Below, one piece after another: positions 498 to 8,030 of a stretch of DNA of 64,000 bases. Both the position numbers and the translations under genes were made by a program. Numbering within the stretch: position 1 is the stretch's first letter; each line of letters begins with the position of its first letter. The stretch spans positions 1-64,000 of the forward strand of contig JBFMAF010000054.1 of assembly GCA_040755995.1 (NCBI GenBank), given 5' to 3'. Under the pieces are notes generated by a model. The model had not been told where the DNA came from. It saw nothing but the letters and a program-made list of their open reading frames with translations, and searched no databases. Source of the stretch: Acidobacteriota bacterium (GTDB lineage: Bacteria; Acidobacteriota; CAIWXX01).

Positions 498-1778
498 CTA
501 CGCCAGCGTCCTGTCGGCTCCGTCGTGGTCGGAACCCGCCCCCAGGCGTAAAATGCGATCGAAGCGGGTGAGCTGTGCCTTGACGTCGACGCCGTACGGG
601 CAGCGCCTCATGCACGGCGCGGAACATCCCTGGCACGACGCGACCTGCTCGCGTCCCATCTCCTGCGCGTACCTGCTCATCGCGTATCGTTCGCGGTGGT
701 AGTCTTCGAAGTAGGATCCCAACCGCATCAGGACGTTTATCTCGACGCCGTATGGGCAGGCGTCATGGCAGTCGCCGCACCCGATGCGGCAGGTCCGCGG
801 AGAAAGGTGGGCGGCGTACTGCTGGAGCCGCTCCTGGTCGAGCGTGGCGAGCTTCTGTCCGGACGACTTTACGTACTCCTCCACCTCCATCGGTGTCGAG
901 AGCGTCTTGACGATTCCGCTGACCCCCGGGTTCTGGAGCACCCACCGCAGGCACAGGTGCATGTACGAAACTCCGCCCGCGTCCTTTGCCATCGATTGCA
1001 GCTGCGCCTTCTCAGCCTCGCTGGCCCTGGCCACCGTCTTCATCGCGATGACTCCGATGCCGGCGGCCTTCGCCTTCGCGATCACAGCGTCGACCTCCTG
1101 GAGCGTCCCGCCGCCTTCTCGCCCGAGGAAGGAATATGCCGGCATGATGATGTCGATCTTGCCCGTGTCGATCGCCTTGTTGAGAAGCGCGATCTTCGCA
1201 TTGGGCCCGTGGCTGGAAGCAGCGACGAATCGCACCATCCCGCGCTTCTTCGCCTCCTCTATCGCGGCCCAGTAGCCCGGCGCATTGAGGCGCGCCTGCT
1301 CGTCCCCCTTTCGTTCTCCGAGCGCATGGATCATCCAGGCGTCGACATAGTCGGTGTTGAGAAGTCTTAGCGATTTCTCCAGGGAGGCCAGACAGGTCTC
1401 CTTGCTCACGGTCTCAGGGTAGTGGCCGGGATACGGAACGTGGTCGCAGATCTTTGAAAGGATGAAGACCTGCTTGCGCTTCTCCTTGCCCAGCTTCAGG
1501 AACGCCTCGCCTATGATCTTGTGGCTGTTGCCGTAGTCGGGCGCCGAGTCGATGTAGTTGATGCCCAGCTCGACGGCTCGAATTACCGTCGCCGGGGAGC
1601 CGAGGTTTCCGCCTCCCAGACACAGGTCGCTGACGCTGAAACCCGTCTTCCCCAGCGGCCGATAGGCCTTGATTCCCGGGCCGGGGGCGGGTGCGGGACT
1701 CGGTTGAGCGTCGAGGTGAATGGCGGCCAGCCCTCCAGTGGCCAGAGTCGCTGATTTCACGAAATCGCGGCGGTTCAT
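498..1778 (-). CDS. Tat-signal aldo/keto reductase with C-terminal 4Fe-4S dicluster
   Basis: MNRRDFVKS twin-arginine start after GGAGGGG; YRPLGKTG..VS, GINYIDSAPDYG AKR motifs; CRIGCGDCHDACP and CQGCSAPCMRRCP. Confidence 0.9.
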   Translation of the reverse strand: MNRRDFVKSATLATGGLAAIHLDAQPSPAPAPGPGIKAYRPLGKTGFSVSDLCLGGGNLGSPATVIRAVELGINYIDSAPDYGNSHKIIGEAFLKLGKEKRKQVFILSKICDHVPYPGHYPETVSKETCLASLEKSLRLLNTDYVDAWMIHALGERKGDEQARLNAPGYWAAIEEAKKRGMVRFVAASSHGPNAKIALLNKAIDTGKIDIIMPAYSFLGREGGGTLQEVDAVIAKAKAAGIGVIAMKTVARASEAEKAQLQSMAKDAGGVSYMHLCLRWVLQNPGVSGIVKTLSTPMEVEEYVKSSGQKLATLDQERLQQYAAHLSPRTCRIGCGDCHDACPYGVEINVLMRLGSYFEDYHRERYAMSRYAQEMGREQVASCQGCSAPCMRRCPYGVDVKAQLTRFDRILRLGAGSDHDGADRTLA

Positions 1779-1917
1779 GTCCCCTCCGTTCTGCCAGTCA
1801 TGCGCAGGCCATGAGTTACCCAGCTCATCATGGCATATCATACGTCAGCAGCGCACCTCGGGTTCAAGTTCAAGCCCGGCGGGATGGGCGACAACCCGAA
1901 GGGGTGCCGATTCCGGT

Positions 1918-1946
1918 TTGCAATTGGCGCCAGCGTCCAATATTGT
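1918..1946 (+). promoter_or_regulatory. Putative sigma70 promoter for the GAF-GAF-PP2C gene
   Basis: TTGCAA-N17-TATTGT, 31 nt before ATG 1978. Confidence 0.5.
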
Positions 1947-1977
1947 AAACGGCCGTGTGCGAGAGAGAGGTCTGAAG

Positions 1978-3705
1978 ATGGATGCCCAGTTTCTGCTGAA
2001 GGCGAGCAAGCTGCTGAGCTCGACGCTCGACTACGACGAGCTGCTCACGCGGATCGTGGAGGTGACGACGGAGGCGGTGGAGGCCGAGACCGGGTCGGTG
2101 CTGCTCTACGACGCCCAGGCCGATGGGCTGGTTTTCGAAGTGGCGTTGGGCGAGAAGACCGGGCAGCTCAAGGAGCTGGTTTTCAAGAGCGGCATGGGGA
2201 TCGCCGGTCACGTGTTCGACACCGGTGAGCCGGCAATCGCCAACGAGGCTCGGATGGATCCACGTTTTGCAAGCGAAGTGGACCACATGATCGGGTTCTC
2301 GACCCGGTCGGTCCTTTGCGTGCCACTGCTCCTTCGCGGCGCCACGATCGGTGTGGTCGAAGCGATCAACAAGCGCGCCGGCGGTGGATTCAGCGACGAG
2401 GATGCACGCCTGATGAGGTCGCTGGCGGATCTCATCGCGGTCGCCATCGAGAACAGCCGGCTCTACCGGCGGGCCAAGAGGGAACAGCGGGAGAAGAACT
2501 CGCTCCTGGAAGTGGCGAAGCGGATCAATTCCGCCCTGGACCTGGACGAGGTTCTCGACATGATCGCTGACTCCATGCACGAGGTAATCCACTATGATGC
2601 GCTCGGCATCTACCTGCTCGATCCATCCACTCAAAACCTCAAGAGCCTCACCGCGCGCGGCTTCAGCGATGCCACCGTGGAGTCACTTCGGTTGAAGTTC
2701 GGCGAGGGTATTGTCGGGTGGTGTATACGAAACGGCGAGTCGGCTCTGGTGCCCGATGTGTCGAAGGACCCGAGATACAAGAAGGCGCGAGAAACGACAC
2801 GATCTGAGATCGTGGCCCCTCTGTTCATAGCCGGCAGGTTCCTCGGGGCGTTGAGCCTCGAGAGCGATCGCTACGCAGCCTGGAACCTGCGGGAACTCGA
2901 GATGCTCAAGGCGTTCGCCGGTCAGGTGTCGGTCACGATCGAGAAGGCGATGCTGCACCGAGAGCTTGTTGAGACGCGGCAGATGGAGCGCGAGATATCG
3001 GTGGCACACCGGATTCAGGCGAGCCTGCTGCCGAGGGGCCAGCCGAGCGTGCCGGGATACGAATTCGCCGGGATGAACACGCCGTCCGAGCGGGTGGGCG
3101 GGGACTACTACGACTTCATCCGACTGATGGACACGCAGTTGGGAATCGTGATCTCTGATGTCTCCGGGAAGGGGATTCCCGCGGCCATCATCATGGCCAG
3201 CTTCCGCGCCAGCTTGCTCGCTGAGATCCGCAACAACTATGCCATACGGACGATTCTGGCCAAGGTCGGAAGGCTGCTGAGGGAGTCGTTTGAGCCGCAC
3301 CACTATGTCACCGCCGTTTACGGTGTTCTGGACCTGCCGAACCGTGTCTTCACGTATGCAAATGCCGGACACAACCCTCCGGTGCTTGTGCGCAGCGACG
3401 GGAGCGTGAGATTCCTCAAGGAAGGCGGCCTGCCCCTCTGCGCCGTCGAGTCCGGGGGCTACACTGAGAAGCGCCTTCACCTGCGCACTGGAGACCTGTT
3501 GGTGTTTTACACTGACGGCGTGAGCGAGGCCTTCAGTCCGGAGCAGGCAGAATTCGGCCTGGACCGCCTGGTTTCGGTGCTCAAGGCCCACTACCACGAG
3601 CCGGCCCGCGTGATCGTGGGAAGGGTGATTGATGCCGTCCAGGAATTCATCGGGGCCGGCACCCAGTCCGACGACGTCACCCTGGTCGCTGTCAAGGTGC
3701 TCTGA
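1978..3705 (+). CDS. Tandem-GAF SpoIIE/RsbU-like PP2C phosphatase
   Basis: Two GAF repeats, then VGGDYYD, DVSGKG, NAGHNPP, YTDGV and DDVT PP2C motifs. Confidence 0.92.
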   Translation: MDAQFLLKASKLLSSTLDYDELLTRIVEVTTEAVEAETGSVLLYDAQADGLVFEVALGEKTGQLKELVFKSGMGIAGHVFDTGEPAIANEARMDPRFASEVDHMIGFSTRSVLCVPLLLRGATIGVVEAINKRAGGGFSDEDARLMRSLADLIAVAIENSRLYRRAKREQREKNSLLEVAKRINSALDLDEVLDMIADSMHEVIHYDALGIYLLDPSTQNLKSLTARGFSDATVESLRLKFGEGIVGWCIRNGESALVPDVSKDPRYKKARETTRSEIVAPLFIAGRFLGALSLESDRYAAWNLRELEMLKAFAGQVSVTIEKAMLHRELVETRQMEREISVAHRIQASLLPRGQPSVPGYEFAGMNTPSERVGGDYYDFIRLMDTQLGIVISDVSGKGIPAAIIMASFRASLLAEIRNNYAIRTILAKVGRLLRESFEPHHYVTAVYGVLDLPNRVFTYANAGHNPPVLVRSDGSVRFLKEGGLPLCAVESGGYTEKRLHLRTGDLLVFYTDGVSEAFSPEQAEFGLDRLVSVLKAHYHEPARVIVGRVIDAVQEFIGAGTQSDDVTLVAVKVL

Positions 3706-4148
3706 CCCCAGTCTGCTTCTCGGGGCTGCCAGCGCCTCGTGTCGAGAGTGAGGCCCGAAATCCGCGCACGGTCCGGAGCGGGCACACAGCAGAACCCTGA
3801 ACTGATGACGCACCCGCACGCGTGGTGGTTTCTGCCGCCTCAAGCCACGTCGGTCGCTTCGGGGAGCTGGCAGCAGGTCATATTTTCATTCTGGAGTCAT
3901 CTTGATTCGTTATATGGCATGTAATGCGGCAGACCTCATCGCGCAGCTTGCAGCTGAAGCGTGACCCACTAACCCGCGTAACCAACCATCGAGACGGAGG
4001 GGCTCCCGTGGGGCAGCATGCCATCCGCCATTCAAACGGACGGCTGGACTACTGCTGCTCGACGCAGAACAGACGATAGGTCGTTCGTCAGAAGTCCAAG
4101 AACGGACCGGAAATGACAAAGAACCAGAAAGAAAGGAGACCGGGGGAC

Positions 4149-4859
4149 ATGAGGAAATTGCTGATTGCCGCAAGCCTTGTCTTGCTGCTCGCAGCGACAG
4201 CGGCGGCTGGTGTGCGGTTTGTGCCTCTCGAAGAGGTGGCTGCAGAGGCCGACTACGGCGTCATCGGCAGGGTGGTCGACAAGTACTGCGCGTGGGATGA
4301 CGAGCACAGGATAATCTGGACACACTACGTCGTGGACCGCGTGGAACTGGTGTTCGGCGAGGACGTGGGACCCCGGTTCGAGATGAAATTCGCCGGCGGC
4401 ACCGTGGGCGAGAAGACCATGATCCTCACGCAGACGCCCGAGCTCGAGCTTGGTCTGGAATACGTCCTGTTCGCCTATGACGATGCGAAGAAATACTCGG
4501 CACCGACGGTTGGGCACTACCAGGGGCTGTTCAGGATCGTCAGAGATCCCGACAGCGGGCTAGCCCAGCTGGTCAACGGCCAAGGCAGGCTCATCGCCGC
4601 CGATCCGGCTGGCGAAGTCATCACGGGCCCTTACGTCGATTTCATCGATACCCACCACATCCGGTTCGCCTCGCAGATGCGGGAGGAGGCGGGTGAGAAG
4701 GAAGTCGACCCTGTGATTCGCGACTACGCCGGCAGGCGAGTCCGTCCCGGTCCACCCGAGATGGCCCCGGTCGAACCGGCCTTGACACCGGTTGACCTGG
4801 AGCAGTTCGTCGAACACATGATCGAGCTGCGGGCTCGTTTTCGGGCGGATGAGCGGTAG
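4149..4859 (+). CDS. Secreted protein, putative TIMP/NTR-like beta-barrel
   Basis: Signal peptide MRKLLIAASLVLLLAATAAA; ADYGVIGRVV, AGGTVG, GLEYVLF, GHYQGLF pattern; RBS upstream. Confidence 0.7.
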   Translation: MRKLLIAASLVLLLAATAAAGVRFVPLEEVAAEADYGVIGRVVDKYCAWDDEHRIIWTHYVVDRVELVFGEDVGPRFEMKFAGGTVGEKTMILTQTPELELGLEYVLFAYDDAKKYSAPTVGHYQGLFRIVRDPDSGLAQLVNGQGRLIAADPAGEVITGPYVDFIDTHHIRFASQMREEAGEKEVDPVIRDYAGRRVRPGPPEMAPVEPALTPVDLEQFVEHMIELRARFRADER

Positions 4860-4868
4860 GAGGGGACA

Positions 4869-6350
4869 ATGAGAAAGATCGCGATGATCCTGACTGTGGT
4901 TCTCGCAGCAGCGGCGCCCGCGCTCGCGCAGACCAGCGCCGACTGGTACGGCTGCTGGTGCGGCGGCTATTCGACGCAGCCCAAGACCGTGTACTGCTAC
5001 GAAGGCAGCGGGTTCTCCGGGGGTTGCACTTCACAGATCAACTACTGGAATACCCACGGGGGTGTCTTCTCGCTGGGCACCAACCTGACGGCCATCGGCG
5101 CGCCGGGCAATGGCAAGAGCGAGATCAACTGCCCGATCACCAGCTCGCAGGCGAGCAGCGTCTACGGGTACACCATGCAGTCCTCACTCTACGGCGTGGC
5201 CCTGATGGAACCCAGCTCGGCGTTCGGCAACTTCAACGCGTGCGAGGACATCGGATCCCCCAACGGGCAGCCGTCGGGATATGGTTGCGCGAGCTGGACA
5301 CAGGCCGACGTCCTGGTCAACTCCGGGTTCTCCTCGGGATGGACCACATCGTACACGGCATACAACGGCAAGGCAGTCGTCCAGACGACCGTGCTCCACG
5401 AGGTGGGTCACACGTTGGGCTTCCACCACGTGTTCAAACACTTCTCAACGATGAACTACATGAACGACGATTCCGGCTGGTTCGTCACGCGGATTGACGG
5501 CAGTTCCGAGCGCGCACACTACCCGAGCGTCGCGAAGAGCGTGACGGACGCCGGCGTGTATCCCTTCAAGTACGGCTCTGCTCAGTACGCCGAGACATAC
5601 GCCACGTTCACCCCGACCTCCGTGGCTGCCGGCGGAACCGTGTCCCTCTCGAATCTCCGCGTTGAGAACGTCGGTTCGGCCTCCAGCCTATCCAACGTGG
5701 TCGTCACCTTCTACCTCTCGACCGACACCTCCATTACCACCGCCGACACCGCGATTGGGACCCTGAGCTGGACGTCTTTTTCGACCTGGTGGGAGTCTTC
5801 CTCCGCAATCAGCCTGACGATCCCGTCCAGCAAGGCCGCTGGAACCTACTACATCGGTGGCATCATCACCGTCGCCGGCTCGCAGGACTCCGTAACAATC
5901 AACAACTCGTTCCTGGTCCGCACTAGGAGCGGCTCCTCGGGGACCCCGCGCGCTCTCTCGGTGACCTCCGGCGGAGGCGGCGGGACGACGATGAACGAGA
6001 CAGAGTCGAACAACTCCCGCACATACGCCAACCTCGTCTCTACATCGGGCACGACCGTGACCGGCTACATCAGCACCTCGTCCGACGTTGACTACTTCAA
6101 GGTCGTGATCCCGACGAAGAAGACGCTGTCGGTCAGCGTCGTGGTGCCCGCGACCACTTCGATCGACTACGACGTGAAGCTCTACGACAGCAGCGGCTAC
6201 TACCTGACGGGCTCGGAGAAGGACGCCGGCCAGAACGAGTCGTTCACCTACTACAACTCGTCCAGCTACTCCAAGACCGTCTACATCAAGGTCTACCCAT
6301 ACTCAGGCTACTCCACCACACAGCCCTACAAGATGACGGTGAGCTGGTAG
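4869..6350 (+). CDS. Secreted matrixin-like zinc metalloprotease with CARDB-like and PPC-like C-terminal domains
   Basis: Signal peptide; HEVGHTLGFHH (HExxHxxGxxH) plus STMNY Met-turn; FYLSTDTSITTAD and ETESNN..DVDYF..DYDVKLYD; AGGAGG RBS. Confidence 0.88.
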   Translation: MRKIAMILTVVLAAAAPALAQTSADWYGCWCGGYSTQPKTVYCYEGSGFSGGCTSQINYWNTHGGVFSLGTNLTAIGAPGNGKSEINCPITSSQASSVYGYTMQSSLYGVALMEPSSAFGNFNACEDIGSPNGQPSGYGCASWTQADVLVNSGFSSGWTTSYTAYNGKAVVQTTVLHEVGHTLGFHHVFKHFSTMNYMNDDSGWFVTRIDGSSERAHYPSVAKSVTDAGVYPFKYGSAQYAETYATFTPTSVAAGGTVSLSNLRVENVGSASSLSNVVVTFYLSTDTSITTADTAIGTLSWTSFSTWWESSSAISLTIPSSKAAGTYYIGGIITVAGSQDSVTINNSFLVRTRSGSSGTPRALSVTSGGGGGTTMNETESNNSRTYANLVSTSGTTVTGYISTSSDVDYFKVVIPTKKTLSVSVVVPATTSIDYDVKLYDSSGYYLTGSEKDAGQNESFTYYNSSSYSKTVYIKVYPYSGYSTTQPYKMTVSW

Positions 6351-6383
6351 TCGAGTAGCGCGGAGCGGACCCGCAGACGACAG

Positions 6384-6414
6384 GGGAGCCCGGGCAACCG
6401 GGCTCCCTTTCTTT
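6384..6414 (+). terminator. Rho-independent terminator
   Basis: GGGAGCCCGG-gcaa-CCGGGCTCCC followed by TTTCTTT. Confidence 0.88.
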
Positions 6415-6599
6415 ATTGGCACCCCGCGGTGGGGGTGGTTGACCCTACCGGCTCCACCGCGCTGCAACCCAGCTCCCGGAGCCACCGCGCTTGCGCGGCC
6501 GAGACCTCTCGTCTAAGATGCCGCTCTGTAGCAGGCGGCAGCGATGACGCGCATGAGAGAGGAGCATGAAGGATGGGGGAGAACAGGATGAGGACGCAA

Positions 6600-8030
6600 A
6601 TGGGGCGGAAGACGAAGATCATCGCAACGATCGGACCCGCCTCGGATTCGGTGCAGACGCTGGCTCGCATGATCGCGGAAGGGCTCGACGTCGTGCGGTT
6701 GAACTTCTCTCACGGCACGCACGAATCTCATGCGAACACGATCGCGCGCGTGCACGAAGCGCGCCGGGTCACCGGCTATCATATCCCGATCCTGCAGGAT
6801 CTGCAGGGCCCGCGCATCCGCATCGGCAAGCTCCCCGGCGACCAGGTGGAGCTGGTGGAGGGGAAGGGTATCATCCTGTCGACGCGCAAGGACCGCGCGC
6901 CAGCCGGGTCGATCCCTACCGACTACGAGGCCCTGGCCCGGGACGTGAGGCAGGGCGACCACATCCTGATCAATGATGGGCTGCTGGAGCTCGAGGTCAA
7001 GTCGACCGACGGTCTGGACGCGCAGTGCGTGGTGGTTCGAGGCGGCCTGGTGAGGTCGCATAAAGGGATCAACCTGCCGGGTGTGAACGTGACTGCCGAG
7101 GCGCTCACGCAGAAAGACCTTGATGACCTGTCCTTCGGCATCGAGCACGGGGTGGACCTGGTCGCACTGTCCTTCGTGCGCAGCGCGTCGGACGTGTTGC
7201 GCCTGAAGCAGGAGATTGCGTCGCGCGGCGGGGACGCGTGGGTGGTTGCGAAGATAGAGAGAAAGGAGGCCATCGACGAGATCGACGAGATCGTCCGCGA
7301 GTCGGACGCGGTGATGGTCGCGCGCGGGGACCTGGGGGTGGAGCTCCCGGGCGAACGGGTCCCGATACTGCAGAAGATGATCATCGCGACGTGCAACAGC
7401 CGGAGCACCCCGGTGATCACGGCAACGCAGATGCTGGAGTCCATGGTGTCTTCTCAACGACCGACCCGCGCCGAGCTCACCGACGTGGCCAACGCCGTCA
7501 TCGACGGGACCGACATGGTCATGCTGTCCGCCGAGACCGGCGTCGGCCAGTATCCGGTCGAAACCGTGGCGATGATGGACAAGATCATCGGCGAGGCCGA
7601 GTCGCTGGGGATTCAACGACACCCCCCGGTGCTCGCTCCGGCAGGCCTCGAAGATCACGTGCTCATGGCGATTGCGCACGCCGCCTGCGTACTGTCGCAG
7701 CAGGTGGATGCGCGGGCAATCGTCCCCTTCACGCACTCCGGCAAGACTGCCCAATCCATCGGCTCATACAGGCCCGCAGCCCAGATCCTCGCCGCCACGA
7801 GCAGCCTGCGCACCGCGCAGAAGCTCAATGCACTCTGGGGAACGCACGGGCTGTTCGTGGAGCCTTCGGATGACACCGACGGCACCGTCCTCCGCGTCGA
7901 ACAGGAGCTGCTCCGGCTCGGCCTGATTCATCGCGGGGACCGCATGGTGGTAACCGCCGGCGTCCCGCTCTTCGTCAAGGCCACTACCAACATGGTCCGC
8001 GTGCACACGGTGGAGGGCCCGAAAGCATGA
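6600..8030 (+). CDS. pyk: Pyruvate kinase (start could be 6573 or 6588)
   Basis: KTKIIATIGPAS, RLNFSHG, DLQGPRIR, MVARGDLGVE, ATQMLESM, MLSAET. Confidence 0.97.
   Translation: MGRKTKIIATIGPASDSVQTLARMIAEGLDVVRLNFSHGTHESHANTIARVHEARRVTGYHIPILQDLQGPRIRIGKLPGDQVELVEGKGIILSTRKDRAPAGSIPTDYEALARDVRQGDHILINDGLLELEVKSTDGLDAQCVVVRGGLVRSHKGINLPGVNVTAEALTQKDLDDLSFGIEHGVDLVALSFVRSASDVLRLKQEIASRGGDAWVVAKIERKEAIDEIDEIVRESDAVMVARGDLGVELPGERVPILQKMIIATCNSRSTPVITATQMLESMVSSQRPTRAELTDVANAVIDGTDMVMLSAETGVGQYPVETVAMMDKIIGEAESLGIQRHPPVLAPAGLEDHVLMAIAHAACVLSQQVDARAIVPFTHSGKTAQSIGSYRPAAQILAATSSLRTAQKLNALWGTHGLFVEPSDDTDGTVLRVEQELLRLGLIHRGDRMVVTAGVPLFVKATTNMVRVHTVEGPKA

Follow-up and report, generated by a model that had tools for sequence, protein, structure and literature searches.

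A predicted TIMP-fold protein encoded upstream of, or fused to, matrixin-type proteases in Acidobacteriota is a candidate active-site inhibitor

We propose that ORF1, the first of two adjacent genes in a 64,000-nucleotide stretch of an Acidobacteriota genome (hereafter the window), encodes a cognate, cleft-plugging inhibitor of the matrixin-type protease encoded by ORF2, a reading drawn from sequence and structural models to which we assign a probability of about 0.65. The predicted product carries an NTR domain of the TIMP fold, and many of its relatives are fused to MMP-like proteases that lack the usual safety catch, suggesting that ORF1 likely plugs the active site. In the proposed mechanism, signal peptidase cleavage would create the mature amino terminus of ORF1, the NTR domain would sit in the matrixin cleft, and the amino terminus would cap the zinc; in fused lineages the same domain would serve as a built-in prodomain, and in split lineages as a separate, detachable inhibitor.

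The two genes lie close together (Table 1). A preliminary description of this DNA had read them as an operon with a 9 nt gap and one terminator, with both products secreted and the metzincin lacking an evident propeptide, and each of these points is borne out: a terminator-like hairpin with its T-run (6382-6409) begins 32 nt past the ORF2 stop codon, both proteins start with a basic-hydrophobic-Ala stretch resembling a signal peptide (as assessed by eye and a crude scorer), and the signal-like stretch of ORF2 leads straight into the catalytic domain, with no PRCGXPD, the cysteine-switch propeptide motif of canonical MMPs (PMC6949598, available text). Since 4.5 kb hold 3 terminator-like sites against 2.5 in shuffles, only the position of the hairpin is informative. 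ORF1 starts at the ATG at 4149, close relatives (P0003 and P0004) begin at the same Met, and the 9-nt gap between NTR and protease genes recurs in a relative genome (G001). No sigma-70 consensus was found on the + strand, Rfam gave no match within 3600-6600, and ORF1 carries no lipoprotein signal (the cleavage site has no Cys, and LPAM_1 scores 10.8 against a cut-off of 20). The neighboring genes, one GAF-GAF-phosphatase regulator-like (1720-3705; also upstream in G001) and one pyruvate kinase-like (6573-8030), both named by eye, show no sign of a functional link.

Table 1. Features of the two-gene unit (window coordinates)
Feature	Position	Strand	Description or basis
ORF1	4149..4859	+	236 aa; predicted signal peptide and cysteine-free-type NTR/TIMP-fold domain, unnamed bacterial family
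ORF1 predicted signal peptide	4149..4208	+	cleavage before A19, A20 or G21; sequence-based
ORF1 NTR/TIMP-like OB-barrel domain and C-terminal helix	4206..4856	+	model
Intergenic gap, 9 nt	4860..4868	+	GGAGG as ORF2 ribosome-binding site; sequence
ORF2	4869..6350	+	493 aa; predicted signal peptide, propeptide-less matrixin-type metzincin, CARDB-like and PPC-like domains
ORF2 catalytic domain, about residues 21-225	4929..5543	+	sequence/profile
ORF2 zinc motif H177-E178-H181-H187 and Met-turn M195	5397..5453	+	sequence
ORF2 C-terminal CARDB-like, then PPC-like domains (approximate boundaries)	5544..6347	+	feature score 0.92, PF07705 and PF04151 clusters
Intrinsic-terminator-like hairpin (12 pairs) and T-run	6382..6417	+	ends the two-gene unit; sequence

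The fold of ORF1 was modelled with AlphaFold2 from a 19-sequence alignment (pLDDT 82.5, pTM 0.78), and the suspected NTR/OB barrel was recovered: a Foldseek search ranked TIMP-2 first (E 1.5e-3, probability 1.0; nothing reached 1e-3), and in an exhaustive structure search of 48,161 chains the best 13 were all NTR domains, the first other fold scoring Z 6.3. The model matches N-TIMP-3 (3cki_B) with Z 9.3 and rmsd 3.0 over 116 aligned residues, followed by complement C345C (Z 8.5), agrin NtA (8.4) and TIMP-1 (7.4). Because the non-inhibitory NTR domains (agrin NtA, complement C345C and PCPE-1 NTR; Z 7.7-8.5) lie within about one Z unit of TIMP, the fold by itself is no proof of inhibition; NTR folds are often not inhibitors, and PCPE-1, agrin, netrins and complement are not known as MMP inhibitors in the available text of PMC2871463. 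An insert at model residues 157-184 has pLDDT below 50 and may fold upon binding. The corresponding window segment, 4677-4760, contains a short motif common to L003 and L152-L156, an insert-bearing subclade in which the protease combines four conserved Cys with a CARDB-like domain.

ORF1 matched no family in Pfam or NCBIfam, and for its family no usable match was found in Pfam, NCBIfam, PHROGs or, by sequence, the PDB; PF03146 (NtA) was weakly matched by 4/97 members. A profile built from 19 relatives, run against 1.84 billion representatives, nevertheless retrieved 27,848 clusters at E<=0.001 and 15,179 at 1e-10, and was positive in 75 of the 151 genomes drawn from the phylum (a tally that includes the unpublished genome G025). 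Ten top representatives were looked up, of which four were named, each as 'hypothetical protein'. The ESM Atlas holds unnamed look-alike clusters (score 0.95), recorded most commonly from Pseudomonadota, Planctomycetota and Verrucomicrobiota, the nearest named clusters being TIMP (13% of an actinobacterial cluster) or NtA.

A TIMP-like mechanism makes a specific demand on the amino terminus: adding an N-terminal Ala to TIMPs abolishes inhibition (PMC2871463, available text), which predicts a fixed register. The TIMP-1 register proposed earlier for ORF1 agrees with the structural alignment, in which model residue 1 (G21) falls on residue 2 of TIMP-3 and TIMP-1, so that A20 takes the Cys1 position. 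Counting back from the conserved Gly in the first strand, position -1 is Ala in 73% of the 220 stand-alone rows and 77% of the 48 fused ones, and position -3 is Ala in 53% and 40%, respectively. After 14 stand-alone and 2 fused rows without a hydrophobic stretch were dropped, a crude signal-peptidase scorer placed the mature start at the Cys1 position in 124/206 stand-alone and 30/46 fused rows, and one residue later in 28 and 8. For ORF1 itself, starts at A19 and G21 tie and A20 scores lower, and its two closest relatives favour G21, one past the Cys1 position, as in the preliminary description. Thr, Ser and Ala predominate at residue 1 of the family, and Thr and Val at residue 2. The Cys1-X-Cys3 signature is missing, with Cys at position 1 in 1/220 stand-alone rows, at position 3 in none, and at neither in the 48 fused rows, and the PF00965 (TIMP) profile matches neither ORF1, nor 97 family members, nor the window's own genome; with both the cysteine-motif and profile tests negative, ORF1 is not a member of the TIMP family (PF00965, I35). 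A further possibility, that the sole cysteine (Cys47) enters the zinc cleft, is abandoned, and with it a role for Cys47 as a switch, since only 6/97 sequences have Cys in that column.

ORF2 contains the matrixin signature HExxHxxGxxH (HEVGHTLGFHH) and Met-turn, and its Pfam Peptidase_M10 (PF00413) score is 17.4, below the cut-off of 24. PF00413 is matched by 87/98 partner catalytic domains at E<=0.001, and a profile of the partner proteases finds MMP-1 (5e-26) and karilysin (2.5e-23), so that the proteases paired with the NTR family are classed, on these matches, as MMP-like. The cysteine-switch motif occurs in 0/96 fused NTR-matrixin proteins. In the ORF2 subtype, C29, C31, C125 and C140 are conserved in 8/8 members, including the fused counterpart L104, and likely form two disulfides; with two further conserved Cys always present, the N-terminal CxC is unlikely to be a cysteine switch.

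The two families are connected by gene linkage. Among loci taken from the top of the 151-genome match list, 119 distinct NTR matches were found, with a possible double count of one protein; 74 stand alone and 45 belong to longer frames. In a first pass the next gene carried a zinc motif for 45 of the 74 stand-alone genes, and after the remaining 29 were re-examined with a catalytic profile, 66 of the 74 had a protease downstream (three via a second NTR gene, one as a fragment). Of the longer frames, 44/45 hold a catalytic domain, 38 by an in-frame motif and six by a catalytic-domain match, the exception (L090) showing neither. A separate database search, in which 8,000 candidates were scored, found HExxHxxGxxH in 54/54 long homologues, 49 with a precomputed PF00413. 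The survey of fused versus split forms proposed in the preliminary description, which had mentioned similar domains fused N-terminally to bacterial matrixins, confirms that fused forms exist. With both profiles run over 40 genomes (G025 dropped), 40/52 NTR matches have a catalytic match within 1 kb downstream and 41/54 catalytic matches have an NTR match upstream, the reverse order being absent at the thresholds used; both occur in 22 genomes, neither in 16 and one alone in 1 each, figures that carry some circularity, the catalytic profile having been derived from the partners, and that include non-independent kin. A search that starts from the protease is the cleaner test: an NTR gene lies directly upstream of 5/5 relatives of the ORF2 catalytic domain (one cut by a contig end), and 0/24 loci matching only the C-terminal domain of ORF2 have an NTR gene or catalytic domain. 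On a quick tree of 97 partnered NTR domains, from which orphans were left out, the fused or split state changes 8 times, at least 3 changes being forced by starred branches.

Linkage has its exceptions. PF00413 matches also occur in genomes without an NTR match, and four matrixins starting right after the signal peptide (L132-L135) have no NTR gene in the fetched stretch, though their genomes carry NTR genes elsewhere. The window's genome has three NTR-matrixin pairs, on C54 (the window), C20 and C28, together with a canonical-looking MMP (L137; G000:C56:4724-5230) that bears a PRCGVPD cysteine switch and a PF00413 match of E 1.7e-43, far stronger than the other matches in 41 genomes; its flanks (2.5 kb upstream, 1.2 kb downstream) hold no NTR gene. 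The pairs on C20 (L001; G000:C20:140146-141233) and C28 (L063; G000:C28:197778-198862) have minimal 200-aa proteases in which the third zinc His is replaced by Asp.

How the two domains might fit together was modelled in a natural, unaltered fused relative (L101, 396 aa, 92-sequence alignment), giving five similar models with pLDDT 91.1 and pTM 0.89. Its NTR domain matches N-TIMP-3 with Z 10.3 and rmsd 2.4 over 117 aligned residues, and its first residue is matched to residue 1 of TIMP-3 and TIMP-1. Residues 2-4 form a strand in this model. They are coil when ORF1 is modelled alone, an imperfect control given that the two proteins differ. The edge strand reaches back as far as G290, and a lone bridge is found at I363, three residues past the Met-turn. 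We take these G290 and I363 segments to be the two that clamp TIMP residues 2-4 in the TIMP-MMP geometry. In alignments of zymogens based on the catalytic domain, LAST residue 39 falls on L101 residue 73 and promirolysin residue 24 on residue 74, and other pro-segments align with NTR residues 1-9 or 74-77. The zinc switches of these zymogens are D38 in LAST and C23 in mirolysin (PMC9629494, PMC6949598, available text), and hence the model indirectly puts the NTR domain at the cleft, in the place that switch segments occupy in zymogens. This seating is read from secondary structure and from first aligned residues and ranges, and resemblance to solved structures may have influenced the model.

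These data bear unequally on the other accounts of the pair. That two unrelated secreted proteins merely share an operon is highly improbable; the incidental reading could draw on inter-domain mutual information that does not exceed shuffled pairings (peak z 5.2 against 4.35-5.12 in 5 shuffles; 152 paired rows, Neff about 79, underpowered), and it is largely refuted by the linkage data, found in both search directions and fixed order across many families of the phylum, as well as by the repeated fusion and fission and the pTM of the two-domain model. An unlikely but more serious alternative is that ORF1 works mainly as a folding or export chaperone, or as a permanent structural subunit of the matrixin, cleft binding being incidental or brief. 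Such a role would suit the many fusions at the prodomain position, the start register that shifts by one residue, and the invariant residues of the family, which are barrel glycines and not N-terminal residues. It would also explain why the NTR partner is retained, still in register, beside the 9/97 catalytic domains without zinc ligands or catalytic Glu; however, 7 of the 9 fall in a single clade on the quick tree and may thus represent a single derived case. Propeptide-less matrixins without an adjacent NTR gene further suggest that folding may not need the NTR domain, whereas a fixed N-terminal register and modelled cleft seating are what an inhibitor requires.

The NTR protein might instead be a substrate, activator or adaptor of the protease with its own downstream job, which we regard as improbable. 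Precedents come from Listeria, where Tim is cut by its metzincin and the available text of PMC8235301 reports no inhibition, and from the PCPE-1 NTR domain, which is described as enhancing rather than inhibiting metzincins (PMC2871463, available text), and orphan NTR genes do occur. Yet Tim is a lipoprotein encoded downstream and has about 50 additional residues at its N-terminus, whereas the ORF1 family is upstream, non-lipoprotein and in register directly after the signal peptide, and the N-terminal position in fusions better suits latency. Cognate inhibition stays the preferred reading among the four, although it and a chaperone or subunit role can be compatible.

Several known systems resemble the ORF1-ORF2 pair in part. 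Animal TIMPs (PF00965; 3cki_B N-TIMP-3, 1uea_B TIMP-1, 1br9 TIMP-2), which form MEROPS I35 (PMC9890683, available text), share with ORF1 the NTR OB-fold, an N-terminus in or next to the Cys1 register and an M10/MMP-like catalytic partner, with cleft seating modelled for the fused relative. In contrast to TIMPs, ORF1 has no Cys1-X-Cys3, no disulfides (including the one that holds the N-terminus), no aligned C-terminal TIMP domain and no PF00965 match, and its family is co-encoded with one protease, often fused as a prodomain. In Tannerella forsythia, the OB-fold inhibitor potempin A is encoded directly upstream of, and co-transcribed with, the bacterial MMP karilysin, a layout like that of ORF1, but the available text of PMC9890683 presents potempins as 98-132-residue lipoproteins with a loop-based bilobal mechanism, unrelated to TIMPs, and karilysin as having its own short propeptide, which ORF2 lacks; PotA was absent among the best 50 structural matches listed for the ORF1 model. 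The Mtz-Tim pair of Listeria likewise combines a secreted metzincin with a co-encoded protein, TIMP-like by Phyre2, but with mtz preceding tim, a Tim lipoprotein that Mtz cuts and, in the available text, no fused forms (PMC8235301). ORF1 is set apart from Tim, by description and not sequence comparison, through its upstream position and lack of a lipobox. The serralysin inhibitors AprI/Inh are co-encoded periplasmic metzincin inhibitors said to bind in a TIMP-like way, and differ in a structure that is not TIMP-like and in their target, an M10B serralysin and not an MMP-type domain (PMC8235301, PMC9890683, available text). Agrin NtA, complement C345C and the PCPE-1 NTR domain have the same fold as ORF1 but no linked cognate protease, and are mostly C-terminal, without a free N-terminus (PMC2871463, available text).

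A broader reading, which we hold tentatively and with more doubt than confidence, is that these proteins constitute a vast, unannotated, cysteine-free bacterial TIMP system, in which NTR domains act as prodomains in cis in fused matrixins or as inhibitors in trans of split ones and cap the zinc with the N-terminus left by signal peptidase, a third MMP-type latency mechanism beside the cysteine and aspartate switches, and a likely bacterial source or sister of animal TIMPs. Within the available text, PMC10755359 places the origin of TIMPs in early eumetazoans, PMC2871463 treats the NTR domain on the basis of animal proteins, and PMC3516229 has nothing on bacterial NTR domains. In the literature covered, which mostly excludes subscription journals, we found no description of an upstream-or-fused NTR-matrixin family. 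A 2010 review by Brew and Nagase reportedly mentions bacterial TIMP-like sequences. The authors of the Mtz-Tim work found no earlier records of bacterial TIMP-like proteins (PMC8235301, available text). With tens of thousands of clusters linked to MMP-like proteases, both split and fused, a bacterial family of this fold would open the origin of TIMP-MMP control to direct testing. Many proteins now called hypothetical, and N-terminal regions of bacterial matrixins that lack annotation, would gain a name, and the family could provide disulfide-free scaffolds for selective MMP inhibitors.

Variant arrangements were also seen. No protease was found in the fetched stretch for 8/74 stand-alone NTR genes (L016, L055, L064, L066, L071, L074 and L102, with L082 at a contig end); the first seven are orphans, mostly in genomes rich in fused matrixins, and might serve matrixins encoded elsewhere, L134 for example, in trans. 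Five more remote NTR-like proteins have a longer N-terminal stretch (L145, L146, L147, L148, L151); of these, L145 and L148 precede divergent metzincins and L147, which resembles the ORF1 family (HHalign 96.6%), follows one, in the order of Listeria Mtz-Tim; neither a phage match for the distant NTR of L147 nor a plasmid match for P0012 was found. At L008/L130 (G016:C35), an NTR gene precedes a matrixin apparently interrupted by a transposase-like gene. Two NTR genes in tandem ahead of a single matrixin, and proteins carrying repeated NTR domains, were seen among L018, L039, L052, P0008, P0010, P0014 and P0015. The matrixin-like partners in which zinc ligands or the catalytic Glu were lost and the NTR partner was kept (L010, L057, L072, L073, L079, L086, L087 and the fused L059 and L096) are pseudo-proteases that may serve as receptors or decoys.
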